Below are positions 40,194-52,407 of a stretch of DNA of 64,000 nt, one piece after another. The notes beneath the pieces were generated by a model. It searched no databases. It was not told the origin of the DNA and was given only the letters and a program-made list of their open reading frames with translations. A program made the position numbers and the translations under genes. The first letter of the stretch is position 1. Every line of letters begins with the position of its first letter. The stretch covers positions 447,814 to 511,813 of the forward strand of contig CAYPFW010000001.1 of NCBI GenBank assembly GCA_964410585.1, given 5' to 3'. This stretch comes from an uncultured archaeon. GTDB taxonomy: Archaea > Aenigmatarchaeota > Aenigmatarchaeia > QMZP01 > JACQNV01.

Positions 40194-40321
40194 GGTTTTG
40201 GGTACGGTAGCCTTTTGACAAAGGCGGAAGTCGCGTCTCCAATTAGCTGAGTGTTCAGTTAGTTGTTCGCGAGACGTCTCTGCGTCAATTTAGCAGGAGA
40301 CGCAGACCTTGAAAAGGCTAG
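40194..40321 (-). repeat. Long-form X repeat (reverse), starting 2 nt after the peroxiredoxin stop
   Basis: GGTTTTGGGTACGGTAGCC...GCGTCTCCAATTA...CGCGAGACGTCTCTGCGTC...GACGCAGA...GAAAAGGCTAG. Confidence 0.8.
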
Positions 40322-40323
40322 CT

Positions 40324-40893: not shown

Positions 40894-41070
40894 TTAGAAA
40901 TCGACACAACCGATTTCAATTCTCTAACCCCTTAATAGCTACATTTGCCTTTTACATAAAAGAAGTAGCCATAGTTTTATTGAAGTTTAGATTTAAATAT
41001 CTTTTTGGGTAATAAGGTTTTCCCATGGTAAGACACAGGCCCCTCTCAAGTCGTTCAGAGAAGACCAAAA

Positions 41071-41107
41071 TTGAAACTAAGTGTCTTAGTTTCTCGCGAA
41101 TACTTGG
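41071..41107 (+). repeat. Linker copy C0 (diverged)
   Basis: TTGAAACTAAGTGTCTTAGTTTCTCGCGAATACTTGG. Same layout and same GTGTC centre as C3. Confidence 0.55.
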
Positions 41108-41232
41108 AGCGATCGAGCCTTTGCAAATAGAATTGAAAGGCGAAGAAGTTTGAGAGCCCGAACTTGTTATCATTAACAATTTATTCAGACATTATTTAGG
41201 TGCCCGCAGTTATCTCGAAATATATTAGAATT

Positions 41233-41583
41233 TTATTCCACATATTCCCCACGAATTGCAATAACTTTAAACCTAATGGCCAAATCTTCAATAATATCTG
41301 CAGCACCTGATTTATCACACTTTGATGTTCCTAGAACCTCATAACCTCCACGAGACCCCCCTAACCTATCTATAAAATAATCTTGCATCTCCTTAAAGAA
41401 CTCTAGATATCCCTCGTTACAAATTGTAACTTCGCGACGCTCATGATCAATTGCTATTGCACAATCTATTCTTTCACCAGACAAATGAAAAAGAGTTCTT
41501 CGCAACCCATCAGAAACCGCATTTCTATATTGCCCTAGATTTTCAAATTCTACTATCTTTTGTCTTGTCATTTTTTCACCCAA
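41233..41583 (-). CDS. Cassette ORF a, hypothetical (116 aa)
   Basis: Flanked by inverted repeats TTTGAGAGCCC (41149-41159) / GGGCTCTCAAA (41647-41657) and AGGTGCCCGC / GCGGGCACCT. Confidence 0.55.
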   Translation of the reverse strand: MGEKMTRQKIVEFENLGQYRNAVSDGLRRTLFHLSGERIDCAIAIDHERREVTICNEGYLEFFKEMQDYFIDRLGGSRGGYEVLGTSKCDKSGAADIIEDLAIRFKVIAIRGEYVE

Positions 41584-41657
41584 TATAAAATGTAATTTTA
41601 AAGCATATAAGCTTGTGGATCTCGTGGGCGGGCACCTCGTTAGTGAGGGCTCTCAAA

Positions 41658-41711
41658 TTTCACTTAATGATCTTATGCTCCCACGATAGTGGTTCGAACG
41701 CAGTGAGAAAG
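41658..41711 (+). repeat. Linker copy C1 (left arm replaced)
   Basis: TTTCACTTAA-TGATC-TTATGCTCCCACGATAGTGGTTCGAACGCAGTGAGAAAG. Confidence 0.75.
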
Positions 41712-42095
41712 TCGAGATTGCAGTGCAAAAATAAAAACAAGTTTTTGGATTTAATTGTTAAACGGTGGGGGCGGGTTTGTAGTTCCAGTTCTTACTATAA
41801 CTACCAACTCTCCAAGGTTCACAATCTCTTCTGCCAACAATTTCCCACCACATACCAGGGAAAAGGATAGTCGCTATAAAAGTATCTCCTATCTGCTCCA
41901 TGCGTGTATCAGAATAAGTCCTGATATCTTTTCTTAACTCATCAAAAAGATAACCCACTTTAGTTCTGTATACTTTTCCTGTATCTTCAGATACCCATTT
42001 TGGTTTAAACATACAAATAATTAAAGTGTAAATAATTTAAGCTTAACCCCGCCCCCTCGCCAGTCGTCTAGGAATCCAAAAACCTGCGATCTCGA
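41712..42095 (-). mobile_element. TIR-bounded small-ORF element b (384 bp)
   Basis: TCGAGATTGCAG..TTTTTGGATT..GGGGGCGGG at the left. The right end is the inverse: CCCCGCCCCC..AATCCAAAAACCTGCGATCTCGA. Confidence 0.7.
41758..42012 (-). CDS. Cassette ORF b, hypothetical (84 aa), paralog of ORF e
   Basis: MFKPKWVSEDTGKVYRTKVGYLF.... The C-terminal ...KPAPTV is encoded by the GC-rich TIR box. Confidence 0.6.
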   Translation of the reverse strand: MFKPKWVSEDTGKVYRTKVGYLFDELRKDIRTYSDTRMEQIGDTFIATILFPGMWWEIVGRRDCEPWRVGSYSKNWNYKPAPTV

Positions 42096-42130
42096 TTGAG
42101 CATAATGATCTTATGCTCCCACGATAGTGG
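42096..42130 (+). repeat. Linker copy C2 (3'-truncated)
   Basis: TTGAGCATAA-TGATC-TTATGCTCCCACGATAGTGG. Confidence 0.8.
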
Positions 42131-42136
42131 CGAGAC

Positions 42137-42433
42137 TTACTTTGGCTGATCAGAAGTCGAAGAGTCGACGGCGGAGGCTCTTGAAACAATATATTCTTCT
42201 GTAAAATTTTCGAGTTCGGTAAGAACTTCTGGGTCAGATCCTATATAAGCAAATAATCTGTGTGCAAGCATATCATAACTACCAACTTCTTTACCTTCTC
42301 TATCATAAATTAAAGCACCATCAATCCCTGGAATATCTAAAACTCTGAAGCCTCTTCTCTGTATTGATTCTGCAAAATCTTTAAAAGATTCGTCCCTTCC
42401 TAATTGATATTCTCCAATTTTAATTTGTTTCAT
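42137..42433 (-). CDS. Cassette ORF c, hypothetical (98 aa)
   Basis: Bracketed by TCGACGGCGGAGGCTC (42165-42180) / GAGCCGAAGCCGTCGA (42478-42493), 13/16 complementary. Confidence 0.55.
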   Translation of the reverse strand: MKQIKIGEYQLGRDESFKDFAESIQRRGFRVLDIPGIDGALIYDREGKEVGSYDMLAHRLFAYIGSDPEVLTELENFTEEYIVSRASAVDSSTSDQPK

Positions 42434-42493
42434 AAGCTATGAATTGACACCAAGTTTTAAATATACCAAACACAGAAGAGCCGAAGCCGTCGA

Positions 42494-42563
42494 TTGAGCA
42501 TAAGTGTCTTATGCTCCCACGATAGTGGTTCGAACTTGGGAAAATGATATAGAAGTGAGAAAG
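42494..42563 (+). repeat. Linker copy C3 (complete, centre GTGTC)
   Basis: TTGAGCATAA-GTGTC-TTATGCTCCCACGATAGTGGTTCGAACTTGGGAAAATGATATAGAAGTGAGAAAG. Confidence 0.85.
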
Positions 42564-42581
42564 TCGCATGTGGAGGGGCTA

Positions 42582-42836
42582 TTAACCATATTTTATTTTA
42601 TGAAACAGAACAGTTAATGAAAAAATAAATGTAACTATATTTATGCTTATCAAGGGCAACGAATTAATCAATACACCATAAATCAACCACAATAACTGAC
42701 TTATCGTAAGGATAAGATACATGTGAAAGTTAATATCGCGAGTCAACTTGGTTCTCCACACTTGAACTACTTGAGGGAAAATAGCAACAATTGACAAAAT
42801 GGTGGCAATATACCCGAGAAGGTCAACATAAATCAT
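42582..42836 (-). CDS. Cassette ORF d: SemiSWEET / PQ-loop 3-TM transporter (84 aa)
   Basis: Three TM segments with FPQVVQVWRTK and LWLIYG motifs. Bracketed by TCGCATGTGGAGGGGCTA (42564) / TAGCCCCGGAACATGCGA (42888). Confidence 0.7.
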   Translation of the reverse strand: MIYVDLLGYIATILSIVAIFPQVVQVWRTKLTRDINFHMYLILTISQLLWLIYGVLINSLPLISINIVTFIFSLTVLFHKIKYG

Positions 42837-42888
42837 ACAATTAATTGAATTCGCATATGTAAATATTTTTTAGCCCCGGAACATGCGA

Positions 42889-42957
42889 TTGAGCATAATG
42901 ATCTTATGCTCCCACGATAGTGGTTCGAACTTGGAAAATAATATAGAAGTGAGAAAG
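42889..42957 (+). repeat. Linker copy C4 (complete)
   Basis: TTGAGCATAA-TGATC-TTATGCTCCCACGATAGTGGTTCGAACTTGGAAAATAATATAGAAGTGAGAAAG. Confidence 0.85.
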
Positions 42958-43413
42958 TCGAGCTCGCAGTTAACAAATAGAAACAAGCTTTTGGATTAAT
43001 CTGTCAAATCAAGAGAGGGGGCGGGGATTGTTTTTGGTTCATCGATTTTTCTCAAATCATAGAAAGATCTAAGATAAAAATAAGGTACTAAAGCAGGAGT
43101 AACGACTATTCCAGAAATACCAATGCCTAAGCTAAGCAACGCATCTACAGGATCTTCTTCCCAGTTTTCTTTTGATATATCAAGATCTCTATATATACTA
43201 TCAACAGCTTTTGAAAAAGACCAACCTAAACGGGTTCTATAAACCAGTCCATACTCCTGACTCAAATGATTAATTGTAGAACGTGTAAGTTCCTCACTTT
43301 CTGAAACAGCTGTCTTGGGAATAAACATATAACCAAAATATAACTGCAAACAATTTAAGCTTAATCCCGCCCCCTCGTAAGTTGCCTAGTAATCCAAAAA
43401 CCTGCGAGCTCGA
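42958..43413 (-). mobile_element. TIR-bounded small-ORF element e (456 bp), homologous to element b
   Basis: TCGAGCTCGCAG..CTTTTGGATTA..GAGGGGGCGGGGATT at the left. The right end is the inverse: AATCCCGCCCCCTCG..TAATCCAAAAACCTGCGAGCTCGA. Confidence 0.7.
42996..43328 (-). CDS. Cassette ORF e, hypothetical (110 aa), paralog of ORF b
   Basis: Start set at MFIPKTAVSESEEL...LVYRTRLGWSF, matching the ORF b N-terminus. The C-terminal ...IPAPSLDLTD is encoded by the TIR box. Confidence 0.6.
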   Translation of the reverse strand: MFIPKTAVSESEELTRSTINHLSQEYGLVYRTRLGWSFSKAVDSIYRDLDISKENWEEDPVDALLSLGIGISGIVVTPALVPYFYLRSFYDLRKIDEPKTIPAPSLDLTD

Positions 43414-43436
43414 TTGAGCATAATCAGTGTTAAGTG
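43414..43436 (+). repeat. Linker copy C5 (right arm replaced)
   Basis: TTGAGCATAA-TCAGTG-TTAAGTG. The new right arm is the reverse complement of the C1 left arm CACTTAA. Confidence 0.7.
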
Positions 43437-43515
43437 ACTCTGTTAGGAGCGAGGCTTAACAGGTTATTAAGTAGCCGAAGAGTCGAAAGAAAGTAAACAA
43501 CTAATAGGGGCGGAA

Positions 43516-43884
43516 TTAGTCAGATCGTCTAGGCATAGATATAATGGTTGGTTTACCCATATCATCCCAAGCTTCCCAGGCTTCTCGAGAAACACCTGTT
43601 TGTCTAACGTCATCCCCAGTAACTACATGTGGAGGTTGAGCGTCTTCTGGAAGATTTTGCACATATCTATCAAAAACCCTACTAACAGCATAAAGTGTAA
43701 ATCCAGGATTTCCCCCAGTAAGTTCTTCCAAAGCGGCATAACCAGAATCATCAAATCTAATAAAACTACCAGGCTCTTGACCCATCGCTTTGTGTGCAAA
43801 ATCTAATCTACGCTCAACGACTGGTCTAACCATAGAACGGTTGGTAGGTATTTCGATGTAACGCATCTCAATTGGCTCTGACAT
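43516..43884 (-). CDS. Cassette ORF f, hypothetical (122 aa)
   Basis: Bracketed by TCGAAAGAAAG...GGGGCGGAATT (43483-) and AATTACGCCC...CTTTCTTTCGA (-43970). The composition looks GC-richer than neighbouring genes. Confidence 0.55.
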   Translation of the reverse strand: MSEPIEMRYIEIPTNRSMVRPVVERRLDFAHKAMGQEPGSFIRFDDSGYAALEELTGGNPGFTLYAVSRVFDRYVQNLPEDAQPPHVVTGDDVRQTGVSREAWEAWDDMGKPTIISMPRRSD

Positions 43885-43970
43885 ATAATCACCAAATCAA
43901 CCATTAAATATTGAAAGTAAACTATTTAAGTTATAAATTACGCCCTTCACGGTTAACCGCTTTCTTTCGA

Positions 43971-43985
43971 TTTCACTTAAGAGAC
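43971..43985 (+). repeat. Linker remnant C6
   Basis: TTTCACTTAAGAGAC shares TTTCACTTAA with C1. Confidence 0.45.
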
Positions 43986-44093
43986 TTTATACGAACGTTG
44001 ATAAACTAGACTGATTTTGGGCTTTATTTGTTGTTTTGAGATTGTTTTGGATATATTGATTCTGACGCTTCTGGAAATCTATAGACGCTAAAT

Positions 44094-44420
44094 TTAGCCA
44101 TATCCAAATCTTCTCTCATAATTTTTGTGATCAAACCACTCAAGTAAGATAGCCATTATTTTAATTTCGTCTTTTGCTATTGTGTATATTAGTCTCCAAG
44201 CGTTTGGCAAATCATATTTCCACAAATTGTCTATTTTGTATTTCTTGATGTATTCTTTCGGCCACAAATCTTGAGGAATCTTTATTCCACAATTTGGATT
44301 CTTTTTCAAATCATCGGTTGCTCTTTCAAGAAATTTGTAAAGCTGAGGATCTTCAGATTCTGCCTTTTCGTACTCCTCCTTTGTTTTCTCATCTATAAAA
44401 CCAACAAACACATTTGTCAT
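44094..44420 (-). CDS. RelE/YoeB-like type II toxin
   Basis: 108 aa with ...NLWKYDLPNAWRLIYTI...ILLEWFDHKNYERRFGY. 4-nt overlap with the upstream small ORF. Confidence 0.6.
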   Translation of the reverse strand: MTNVFVGFIDEKTKEEYEKAESEDPQLYKFLERATDDLKKNPNCGIKIPQDLWPKEYIKKYKIDNLWKYDLPNAWRLIYTIAKDEIKIMAILLEWFDHKNYERRFGYG

Positions 44421-44680
44421 TTTAATATCAATCCTTTTTGTGTCACTTTCCTAATTAGTTCTGGGTTCCATATCCATACTATCTTTTCATCTTTGCCTAT
44501 CGTAATTTTTCCCAGTTCTTCCAGATAATCAATTATCATGGAAAATGTTTGGTACATAACTTGCTTGGGGAGCGCTTTCCACAACTCTGTTTTCGTTGGG
44601 TAAAAACCCAAATTTTTTATAGTGTCCTCTACCATCAATACCGTGTCCAGTCTTGGATAGTGCAAAATATTTTGGCTCAT
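44417..44680 (-). CDS. Small DNA-binding/antitoxin-like protein (paralog of 23176-23439)
   Basis: MSQNILHYPRLDTVLMVEDTIKN.... It sits upstream of and overlaps the toxin. The palindromic promoter copy is at 44689-44707. Confidence 0.6.
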   Translation of the reverse strand: MSQNILHYPRLDTVLMVEDTIKNLGFYPTKTELWKALPKQVMYQTFSMIIDYLEELGKITIGKDEKIVWIWNPELIRKVTQKGLILK

Positions 44681-44711
44681 GTAATTATATAAGTTTATAT
44701 AACTTATAAAG

Positions 44712-45599
44712 CTATCTGTTGTCTCCATATATCCCATCCAGAGGACTCCTAACTTTTATCAAAGTTGGTGCAGCTGTGTGTAGATAAATTTGTGTGGTTT
44801 CTGGGCTTTTGTGGCCGAGCAGGCCTTGGACTTCTGAAACAGAGCAACCGTTTTCAATCAAGTGGGTTGCGAAGGAATGTCTTAAAGTGTGAGGATGAAC
44901 CTTCTTTCCAATTTTGGATTTTTTTGAGGCCTTTTTCAGGATTTGCTGGATGCTGCGGACGCTGTATTTGGTTTTTTGGTTTGTAAGAAAGAGTGGGTTT
45001 TCTGGGAGAAGACCTTCATCTTGGATAAGTTTTCGGATTGCTGATTTCAGGCTTTCTGCGATAATAAACAATCTGTCTTTATTTCCTTTGCCTCCTCTAA
45101 CCCAGCCATAGTTGTTTTCAAGATTCAATTCCTTTACAGTTAAATTTACAAGTTCAGAAACCCGCATACCAGAAGAGTATAGGAATTCTATCATCAGCTT
45201 GTGTTTTTGATTTTGTACTGAGGAAAATAATTTTTGAATTTCATCTTTGGTCAAAACAACTGGAATTTTCTCTGGAACTTTGGAGTAGCTTATATCTATC
45301 CAAATTCTTTTGTCAAGGACTTCTTCAAACAAAAATCTGATCGCCATGTGGTAGACGTTCATTGTGCTGCCTGATTTTTCTTTTTCAGAGAGATTTTCAA
45401 GAAATTCGCGGACATCTTTTTTGCCTATTTTATCCAGACTCTTTCTAGAGAATTTTAGAAATTGATCGATACAATAAATATAGGTCTCAGATGTTCTGGG
45501 ACTATAGTTTCTTCTTCTACATTCTTTTTCGAGAGAAGATTTCCAATCGATAGGTGTGTAGGACATACGATTTATGTATATTTTTAATTCTTTTGGCAT
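44712..45599 (-). CDS. Tyrosine site-specific recombinase (Xer/integron-integrase-like)
   Basis: SAM-like N-terminal domain. Catalytic positions are R (GMRVSEL), HTLRHSF, LLGHKS and IYLH. C-terminal IKVRSPLD resembles the IntI1 C-terminus GVRSPLD. Confidence 0.85.
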   Translation of the reverse strand: MPKELKIYINRMSYTPIDWKSSLEKECRRRNYSPRTSETYIYCIDQFLKFSRKSLDKIGKKDVREFLENLSEKEKSGSTMNVYHMAIRFLFEEVLDKRIWIDISYSKVPEKIPVVLTKDEIQKLFSSVQNQKHKLMIEFLYSSGMRVSELVNLTVKELNLENNYGWVRGGKGNKDRLFIIAESLKSAIRKLIQDEGLLPENPLFLTNQKTKYSVRSIQQILKKASKKSKIGKKVHPHTLRHSFATHLIENGCSVSEVQGLLGHKSPETTQIYLHTAAPTLIKVRSPLDGIYGDNR

Positions 45600-46085: not shown

Positions 46086-46430
46086 TCAGTTAGCATAGTC
46101 TTCTTGAGAAAGAACAACGCTCAATTTTATTGGTCCGTCTTCTATTGGTTTTAGCCTCATTTTCAGAATTTCGTTGAAAAAGAAGCTAAGAGAATTCGAA
46201 ATAAGTTGTGGGAAAGCCCCTGATTTGTTGGAGAGCTCTTTTTCCAAATATTCTTGCAAATCGCTTTCTGTTATTTCTTCCAACGGTTTGTCTATCTTAA
46301 AAACAAACTTTTTAATGTTGAAAAGATGTGTTGCTATTGTTTCTTCTGGCAGATTCTTGAGCCTCATTTCCCTGTATGCAACAAATATTGGGTCAATATC
46401 CATTTCCATAATACTCCTCCTATTCATCAC
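46086..46430 (-). CDS. Stand-alone integrase N-terminal SAM-like (core-binding) domain protein
   Basis: Helical pattern ...EETIATHLFNIKKFVFKI...ITESDLQEYLEK...SLSFFFNEIL without any catalytic domain. Confidence 0.5.
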   Translation of the reverse strand: MMNRRSIMEMDIDPIFVAYREMRLKNLPEETIATHLFNIKKFVFKIDKPLEEITESDLQEYLEKELSNKSGAFPQLISNSLSFFFNEILKMRLKPIEDGPIKLSVVLSQEDYAN

Positions 46431-46758
46431 TCATTGCAATCTCCCTGAAAAGGAGATGTATAGCGTCTCTTGCAATTTTTTTATTTGATTGTATTTGGTT
46501 TAGGTAATCGTTAAGGTCTTCCTCGCAGGCTGCTGATGGGTCCTTTTCCAAAAAGTTTAGGAACCCGTATATGTGGAACCAGTAGTCTTTTATTTCCTCT
46601 TTTGAGAGGCTTCTTCTCTCCATTTCTAGAGAAAGTTTAAACTCTAATGTCCTTGGATAAAAATCCAAAGCTGTGGAAAATTCTAAGAAGGCTCCTTGGA
46701 CAATTTGTTTTTCCAATTCATCGGCCTTTGGAGGGCAAGATTGTAACATAATGATCAC
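46420..46758 (-). CDS. Second stand-alone integrase SAM-like domain protein
   Basis: ...YWFHIYGFLNFLEKDPSAACEEDLNDYLNQI...IHLLFREI. An S-repeat box lies directly upstream. Confidence 0.45.
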   Translation of the reverse strand: MIIMLQSCPPKADELEKQIVQGAFLEFSTALDFYPRTLEFKLSLEMERRSLSKEEIKDYWFHIYGFLNFLEKDPSAACEEDLNDYLNQIQSNKKIARDAIHLLFREIAMSDE

Positions 46759-52392: not shown

Positions 52393-52407
52393 TATAACAG
52401 TGTTATA
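52393..52407. promoter_or_regulatory. Palindromic operator candidate 1 of 3
   Basis: TATAACAGTGTTATA. Confidence 0.55.

Follow-up and report, generated by a model that had tools for sequence, protein, structure and literature searches.

How could two copies of a repeated DNA element come to carry exchanged arms? The question is raised by a stretch of 64,000 nt from an uncultured archaeon (GTDB lineage Archaea; Aenigmatarchaeota; Aenigmatarchaeia; QMZP01; JACQNV01), taken from contig CAYPFW010000001.1 of assembly GCA_964410585.1 (positions 447,814 to 511,813, forward strand) and called the window below. Six small genes lie there in a row beside a tyrosine recombinase gene, and repeated linkers separate them. 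The first-pass annotation proposed that two of the linkers, C1 and C5, are hybrid sites left at the edges of the array when circular molecules recombined reciprocally with a chromosomal attachment site (attB) of the form B-O-B'. Our analysis indicates that the locus is probably an integron-like gene-cassette array assembled from Xer/dif-type parts. C1 and C5 have the hybrid structure that reciprocal site-specific recombination produces, with the exchange in or next to the centre of the palindrome, but they are not integration scars at a chromosomal attB.

Direct reading of the sequence showed seven directly repeated core sites, C0 to C6, on the + strand of the window. The core has the dif-like format ATTnnnnnTAA-N5-6-TTAnnnnn and is palindromic over 8 bp around a centre of 5 or 6 nt. 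C2 (42098-42118) and C4 (42891-42911) read GAGCATAA-TGATC-TTATGCTC, and C3 (42496-42516) reads GAGCATAA-GTGTC-TTATGCTC; their arms are called A and A'. C0 (41073-41093) has matched arms, GAAACTAA-GTGTC-TTAGTTTC, and both of its halves come from a cassette called X, one from its right end and one from its left-end module. C1 (41660-41680) is a hybrid, TCACTTAA-TGATC-TTATGCTC, in which the left arm of cassette a (B) is followed by the centre and by the right arm of cassette b (A'). C5 (43416-43437) is the other hybrid, GAGCATAA-TCAGTG-TTAAGTGA, with the left arm of cassette e (A) and the right arm of cassette f (B'). C6 (43973-43993) reads TCACTTAA-GAGAC-TTTATACG. The first-pass description of C1 as a foreign left arm joined to the consensus right arm, and of C5 as the consensus left arm joined to a complementary right arm, was confirmed by this reading. 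Its caveats were also correct: C5 has a deviating centre of 6 nt, GTGTC is the centre of both C0 and C3, and TTTCACTTAA is found again at 43971.

The left arm of C1 and the right arm of C5 are indeed complementary, over 8 nt (TCACTTAA/TTAAGTGA) and not over the 7 nt (CACTTAA/TTAAGTG) first noticed. The 3 nt TAA/TTA are common to all arms, so five informative bases remain per arm. At this base composition, the probability that these five bases are complementary by chance at a fixed slot is approximately 1.1e-3, and that of ATTTCACT occurring again before TAA at the C6 slot is approximately 3e-5. The view that the match goes beyond chance was thus borne out (approximately 1e-3 at the fixed slot, with ATTTCACTTAA present again at C6). 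The genome holds three copies of ATTTCACTTAA: C1, C6 and one inside a membrane-protein gene on the contig numbered C3, which was rejected as an array site because it lies within a gene and is a chance match. All four genome copies of ATTGAGCATAA lie within the array, and a genome-wide search found no further site of the core type elsewhere in the genome. The B and B' arms hold the same slots in the array of a relative (G002:C37). An origin by chance, or by mutational decay of two edge copies of a repeat, could draw on the five informative bases per arm and the AT-rich sequence. These probabilities, the recurrence of the same arms in the same slots in G002, and a pairing rule that is general over 29 cassettes (see below) leave it practically no probability, and we regard it as refuted.

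The cores delimit cassettes of uniform anatomy. Each cassette begins with the 5-6-nt centre and an 8-nt right arm (TTAnnnnn), continues with two small hairpins, one stem half, the cargo open reading frame(s) (ORFs) and the other stem half, and ends with ATT and an 8-nt left arm (nnnnnTAA). The second hairpin, counted with the core as the first, follows each core and has 4 bp (CCAC-GATA-GTGG). The third hairpin varies in stem sequence among the copies while its pairing is kept; its types are TTC-GA-ACTT...AAGT-GA-GAA and GCGA-stem-GAAGAG. A cassette-specific inverted repeat encloses every ORF, starting directly after the third hairpin and ending ...CGAT/AAAT before the next core. The cores and their asymmetric tails of hairpins 2 and 3 all have one orientation. 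All six cassette ORFs encode 84-122 aa and lie on the minus strand, which is also the strand of the recombinase gene.

The six cassettes follow one another on the + strand. Cassette b (41668..42105; ORF 41758-42012, minus strand) has inverted repeats at 41711-41780 and 42043-42096, and its arms TTATGCTC/GAGCATAA match at 8/8 positions. Cassette c (42106..42503; ORF 42137-42433, minus strand) is closed by a stem at 42165-42182/42476-42493 with the loop GGA/GAA. Cassette d (42504..42898) carries a SemiSWEET ORF (42582-42836, minus strand) and is closed by a stem at 42564-42581/42871-42888. The stems of cassettes c and d both consist of 8 bp, a 3x3 purine loop and 7 bp, and the arms of both cassettes match 8/8. 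The ORF of cassette e (42899..43423; ORF 42996-43349, minus strand) is a paralogue of that of cassette b and is bracketed by the same repeat family, again with arms of 8/8. Cassette f (43424..43980; ORF 43516-43884, minus strand) has the stem TCGAAAGAAAG/CTTTCTTTCGA (~43482, ~43959) and the arms TTAAGTGA/TCACTTAA, also 8/8. The A'/A arms are therefore owned by cassettes b to e and the B'/B arms by cassette f. Cassette a (41081..41667) has the right arm TTAGTTTC, stem halves at 41145-41164 and 41642-41661, an ORF at 41233-41583 (minus strand) and the left arm TCACTTAA; its own arms match at just 4/8 positions, and it is the sole such cassette in the window. The left-end module of cassette a, comprising the right arm and the second hairpin, is homologous to the left end of cassette X in the metagenome contig L142. 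With a left-end module of X type, cassette a is best read as a chimera, although this explanation is post hoc. Cassette X itself is represented in the window by approximately 40 nt of its right end (41038..41080, + strand; …CTCAAGTCGTTCAGAGAAGACCAAAAT and the left arm TGAAACTAA), which abuts the region upstream of a peroxiredoxin gene. This remnant has homologues in L142, at the right end of a complete 1.8-kb cassette, and in a cassette of G001:C23.

The pairing of a cassette's own arms was found to be a general rule. The comparison covered the genome of the window (G000), its relatives G001, G002 and G003, and L-numbered loci including the metagenome contigs L135 and L142; a scan of metagenome contigs with the right arm plus the second hairpin yielded ten contigs with arrays. 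The first test used cassettes defined solely by their closing inverted repeats, which gave 25 candidates. The own arms were complementary at 8/8 positions in 19 of these. The mean match at the five variable positions was 4.36, compared with 2.59 in permuted data (maximum 3.68 in 20,000 permutations). A curated set of 29 cassettes was then compiled from G000, the three relatives and the ten metagenome contigs. In this set the right arm at the left border was complementary 8/8 to the left arm at the right border in 25 cassettes; the set was assembled partly by eye, yet the repeats-only test agrees with it. It contains 15 distinct arm pairs, and each of the stem positions 1-5 shows two to four Watson-Crick pair types. 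Judged from these comparisons, the arm sequence is a property of the cassette and not of the platform.

The junctions follow from this rule. A hybrid arises wherever neighbouring cassettes differ in arm type, and not solely at the edges of an array. Hybrids account for 14 of the 18 internal junctions; the other four are palindromic in place and lie between neighbours with a common arm type, such as TCAATTAA-GTTGTC-TTAATTGA at position 4124 of L142. Five consecutive cassettes of L142 have arms of 8/8 each, and four of the five junctions preceding them are hybrid. The first-pass annotation had placed C1 and C5 at the array edges, but the array spans C0 to C6, and cassettes a and f share the architecture of the others. 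On this reading of the arms, cassettes a and b meet at C1 and cassettes e and f at C5, and at C6 cassette f is joined to a half-site resembling the attI insertion site of integrons.

ORF-less mini-cassettes of approximately 190 nt were observed at or near the attI-proximal end of arrays (L135 2158-2352; L142 3941-4124; G002 L030 1012-1075). They consist solely of TTAATTGA/TTAAGTGA arms and a hairpin, CCTCACGA...TCGTGAGG; within the loop of this hairpin is ATTGGATAAAGG, a sequence resembling a dif half-site.

An inverted repeat around every cassette also recalls non-autonomous transposable elements of the miniature inverted-repeat (MITE) type, inserted in tandem, in which the arms would be the tips of terminal inverted repeats. 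The long repeat that brackets each cassette does have the arms as its outermost 8 nt, and the same 6-nt centre flanks most L142 cassettes in the manner of a target-site duplication. The 15 arm pairs and the cassette-specific inner repeats leave no common terminal repeat that one transposase could recognise by its sequence. In G000, cassettes c, d, e and f each have unequal centres on their two sides, so a target-site duplication is absent. No transposase gene was found in or beside the arrays, and the arrays end at a conserved site beside a tyrosine recombinase gene. We consider this origin highly improbable.

Shared cassettes show where the exchange takes place. Cassette d of G000 and its counterpart in G002:C37 are 87.9% identical over 347 nt, and their non-coding ends are identical. 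The homology ends exactly after GAGCATAA, which is followed by TGATC-TTATGCTC in G000 and by GCTGTG-TTAAGTGA, with the B' arm, in G002. The end of cassette X (…GAAGACCAAAATTGAAACTAA) joins TTAGTTTC (A0') in G000 and TTATGCTC (A') in G001 and L142. In one metagenomic cassette, the centre (T)TAGTG is constant behind four different left contexts. Four breakpoint comparisons place the exchange at the boundary between left arm and centre, directly after ...TAA, with the centre mostly moving together with the right-hand cassette.

The cassettes also show signs of mobility. The left end of cassette c is present in G003 with 91% identity, in a different context beside an unrelated large gene. Between genera, cassettes c and d retain 88-91% identity, whereas a DEAD-box helicase gene retains 64-70% and is alignable only in part. 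A solitary GNAT-acetyltransferase cassette stands in G001:C58 (L029 8700-9330), directly upstream of the start codon of pelota and far from the recombinase. It has the right arm TTATGCCC, hairpin 2, hairpin 3 and a closing stem, and its ORF has the opposite direction relative to the site. The first-pass suggestion that cassettes b to e are integrated mobile units was upheld.

The same structures might instead act in RNA, where the stems and hairpins would process, stabilise or insulate transcripts and the arm pattern of C1 and C5 would come from a repeated RNA element in decay. The co-variation of hairpins 2 and 3 and of the closing stems fits an RNA fold equally well, and the six ORFs lie on the same strand as the recombinase gene. 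The same cassettes, however, occur in different genomic contexts with sharp breakpoints at the core, which requires DNA exchange. The direction of the ORF relative to the structure varies, and no Rfam family matched either strand of 38-48 kb at E<=1. An RNA function is thus a very unlikely cause of the pattern. The stems could have an additional role in RNA, but this would explain neither the shuffling of cassettes nor the hybrid arms.

The array ends at C6, where the attI-like site (43973..44093, + strand) comprises the left arm of cassette f (43973-43980), GAGAC-TTTATACG, the repeats ATTTTGGG/GTTTTGGA and TGACGCTTCTGGAAAT. The right half of C6 is kept in G001, G002, L135 and L142. It joins TCACTTAA (B) in G000 and G002 and TCAATTAA in L135 and L142. 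In G001:C23 an orthologous recombinase (75% identity) is followed by ATTGAGCATAA-GAGAC-TTTTAATGG and then by the ATTTTGGG repeats, so that the left arm there is A. One right half with differing left arms indicates that at C6 the neighbouring cassette, whatever its arm, is joined to a conserved attI-like half-site.

These arms bear on the attB claim. The sequence TCACTTAA-N5-6-TTAAGTGA, the proposed B-O-B' site, was found in 0 of 91 genomes of the order, G000 included, an outcome that the first-pass annotation had itself named as refuting its proposal. The foreign B arm does not stem from a chromosomal attB: cassette f carries B' at its C5 end and B at its C6 end, a matched pair that follows the ordinary own-arm rule. 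In a narrower form of the claim, a B-centre-B' site already lay between the present a and f and received cassettes b to e, one at a time or as a block. The arm pattern of C1 and C5 is exactly reciprocal, as this would predict, and palindromic junctions between cassettes of the same arm type do exist (L142 position 4124). Arms of the B or TCAAT type are attI-proximal in four of the five arrays with a visible site (G000, G002, L135 and L142, not G001), so the B arm could belong to the platform and not to a cassette. Against this, B-O-B' is missing from the 91 genomes, the attI-proximal arm in G001 is A, and B'/B bracket not only cassette f but also an unrelated 1.7-kb cassette in G002, as the own-arm rule predicts. 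Block entry of b to e at a former a/f junction (B-centre-B') and one-by-one addition of a to f at the attI-like site would both yield the present order, and serial insertion assumes no special site. Integration into a B-centre-B' site is considered unlikely.

The recombinase gene (44712..45599, minus strand) encodes a tyrosine recombinase of 295 aa, which profile and structure matches assign to the XerA type. It scored 229.8 bits against NF040815 (XerA_Arch, cut-off 220), 201.9 bits against the integron integrase profile TIGR02249 (cut-off 265, in two stretches) and 131 against PRK15417 (cut-off 435). The closest solved structures are XerA 5hxy and 4a8e from Thermoplasma and Pyrococcus, and the integron integrase IntI4 (2a3v) aligns in two pieces only. 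The split match below the TIGR02249 cut-off and the two-piece alignment of IntI4 indicate that the IntI-specific additional domain around patch III is absent. The protein is the sole match above the XerA cut-off in the 1.1-Mb genome, and its gene and the attI-like site are syntenic in G001. The adjacent XerA-type protein is the most likely catalyst, judging from adjacency and synteny.

Reconstituted circular junctions folded into a closing stem and three hairpins at -25 to -29 kcal/mol (DNA parameters, here and below). In place in the array, the junctions C0-C5 gave -14 to -23 kcal/mol and the attI-like C6 gave -3.2 kcal/mol; the gap between circular and in-place energies is partly because of the repeats themselves. 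The strong co-variation of arms within cassettes argues for their pairing at some stage, either in a folded single strand or in a cruciform. A double-stranded site would need no complementarity between its two arms. A circular intermediate is presumed, and single-stranded folding may have a role.

Xer-type site-specific recombination at a dif-like core is the likeliest mechanism, and the following steps are proposed for it. A cassette closed into a circle would bring its own arms together as a dif-like palindrome (ATTGAGCATAA-TGATC-TTATGCTC). The cassette's own stem would close a four-way fold with this palindrome at its tip. A tyrosine recombinase would exchange strands at the boundary of left arm and centre (between ...TAA and NNNNN), presumably in a single exchange. 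Exchange at this point would make every array junction consist of the left arm of one cassette and the centre and right arm of the next. XerC exchanges strands in dif after ...ATAA, the same point as proposed here. In integrons and in the integration of CTX phage, a single exchange defines the junction, and the products in the array look like those of integron or CTX-phage integration. Tentatively, we suggest that the locus may be a gene-capture platform of DPANN archaea that is parallel to the integron and derived from Xer/dif. In such a platform the recombination site would be split around the cargo, and the cassette would fold as single-stranded DNA into its own stem. Each junction would then offer a XerA-type enzyme without the IntI domain a pseudo-dif core, in which a single-stranded centre lies between two perfect duplex arms despite their unrelated sequences, and the enzyme would carry out a single strand exchange after TAA. 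Folding of each cassette on its own stem would explain why the arms co-vary within cassettes and not within junctions.

Cassette anatomy, arm co-variation within cassettes, breakpoints at the core and the occurrence of cassettes in different genera are read directly from the sequences. Several points weigh against the array reading and the steps proposed for it. Excision and circles are deduced from assembled sequence, and no circular form or empty site was seen in it. The variable centre of 5 or 6 nt misfits the classical two-step exchange, which requires homologous spacers. The centre of cassette c is TGATC in G000 and GTTGTG in G003, and cassette a violates the own-arm rule. The stem mismatches comprise 44 G-T and 37 A-C, with no strand bias (the local alignments are over-extended), so nothing points to which strand folds, if either. 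The direction of the ORF relative to the site differs between arrays. A second Xer-type gene (399 aa, with a zinc-ribbon tail) lies on contig C5 of the genome, and for this reason we do not claim that the array enzyme is the housekeeping resolvase. XerA orthologues with 53-65% identity in other DPANN genomes lie among ordinary genes and without arrays; a direct-repeat search beside four of them (L052-L055) found none.

The locus resembles integrons in many respects. A tandem array of small, mostly single-gene cassettes lies beside a tyrosine recombinase gene and a conserved insertion site, and the array abuts this attI-like site as the array of an integron does. The cassette sites are conserved in pairing and not in sequence, one crossover point is defined, and the junctions are composites of two cassettes. 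Cassettes common to distant hosts, cassettes without an ORF and a toxin-antitoxin-like pair at the array add to the likeness. Toxin-antitoxin pairs are known to stabilise chromosomal integron arrays. The locus differs from integrons in its XerA-type recombinase without the IntI-specific domain. The pairing partners lie on opposite sides of the cargo, with no contiguous attC hairpin between ORFs, and the exchange is placed in a dif-like core at the tip, not the base, of the reconstituted hairpin. A search for canonical attC boxes R''...R' (RYYYAAC...GTTRRRY) on both strands of 40894-44100 gave 0 candidates, compared with a mean of 0.85 in shuffled sequence. Archaeal integrons have attC sites of bacterial type and IntI proteins with the additional domain (Ghaly et al. 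2022, PMC9668308). Among the supplementary entries of that study, Aenigmatarchaeota of the order QMZP01 appear with attC clusters that lack intI (Ghaly et al. 2022, PMC9668308).

The locus is also akin to Xer/dif systems through its XerA-family enzyme and the ...ATAA-spacer-TTAT... arms of its core. The dif site of E. coli reads GCGCATAA-TGTATA-TTATG, and dif is a single 28-bp site with two 11-bp arms and a 6-bp spacer. Here, in contrast, there are seven cores in direct repeat with a spacer of 5-6 nt, and their arms are palindromic over 8 bp and vary with the cassette. The units are gene cassettes of 0.2-2.5 kb with their own stems, not phages or islands. In archaea, dif lies close to xerA in Sulfolobales, and inverted repeats flank dif in Thermococcales; this work on archaeal Xer/dif reports no cassette arrays (Cortez et al. 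2010, PMC2958812).

Serial integration at one site, if it built the array, would be a feature in common with the integrative mobile elements exploiting Xer (IMEX). Such elements, for example CTX phage, integrate at dif using the host Xer recombinases, and IMEX arrays form by serial integration at one site with a usable site regenerated each time. In the case of CTX phage, the integrating molecule is folded single-stranded DNA, and XerC makes a single strand exchange where arm and spacer meet. The nearest Xer-based module system is that of the pdif modules of Acinetobacter, small modules of accessory genes that are bounded by Xer-type sites, occur in many contexts and are thought to be moved by the host Xer. 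On either side of a pdif module lie XerC-XerD and XerD-XerC sites of opposite orientation, and the modules are not known to carry stems of their own. In the present locus, however, all cores have one orientation and the array ends at an attI-like site; the arms co-vary within a cassette, and a single recombinase of homomeric type is implied. A full-text literature search did not find this architecture in print.

The linker was compared more widely. Clear matches to its sequence across the order were found only within the same family (G000, G001 and G003), and matches with 3 mismatches in the order were at control level. A tRNA scan of the window found no tRNA, so GGTTCGAA in the linker is not a tRNA fragment. 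The 15-bp palindrome TATAACAGTGTTATA (or its CACTG form) occurs at approximately 36 sites in the genome, often in intergenic clusters, with window copies at 52395, 52431, 52502 and 37219. It has CAGTG in common with the centre of C5, yet it is a separate motif without relation to the cassette cores, and a global transcription factor probably uses it as its operator.

Genes around the recombinase were also annotated. The recombinase gene is separated from the attI-like site by two small overlapping ORFs (44094..44737, minus strand), of which one weakly matches ParE/YoeB-like toxins and the other is its presumed partner. This pair is absent at the same place in G001. Upstream of the recombinase gene, two adjacent small ORFs of 114 and 112 aa (46086-46758, minus strand) have matches confined to the SAM-like core-binding domain at the N terminus of XerA/IntI (E ~1e-5 to 1e-4); they could be gene fragments or DNA-binding partners that act on their own. 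A long-range stem of a different repeat family, GGTAGCCTTTTG...CTTGAAAAGGCTAGC, encloses further hairpins at 40207-40323, directly downstream of the peroxiredoxin gene. The GC skew of contig C1 was too noisy to place an origin or terminus relative to the array.

The platform varies among other genomes. In G002:C37 (L030 2800-2905), approximately 100 nt of the 5' end of the recombinase gene are left beside the attI-like site, inverted and followed by a methyltransferase gene; with this remnant only, the array is without an intact adjacent recombinase. G002 has two more distant Xer-type genes elsewhere. The 11-mer AGACTTTTAAT was observed on a Woesearchaeota contig (L052 ~1040-1075) within approximately 60 nt of the stop codon of a 65%-identical XerA, with no cassettes after it. 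It is identical to the centre and right half of the G001 attI-like site and may mark an unoccupied platform site.

The hybrid arms are a natural record of the strand-exchange point in a cassette system other than the classical integron, and they map it to the boundary between ...TAA and the centre of the dif-like core. The A, B and hybrid cores provide concrete substrates for biochemistry, both in double-stranded form and folded as single strands. Such a system would document a second route to gene-cassette platforms, derived from the machinery of chromosome resolution, and may help to account for archaeal rows of cassettes without an integron integrase. For the genome-reduced DPANN archaea, it indicates a route to accessory genes, whose cargo here includes a SemiSWEET transporter.

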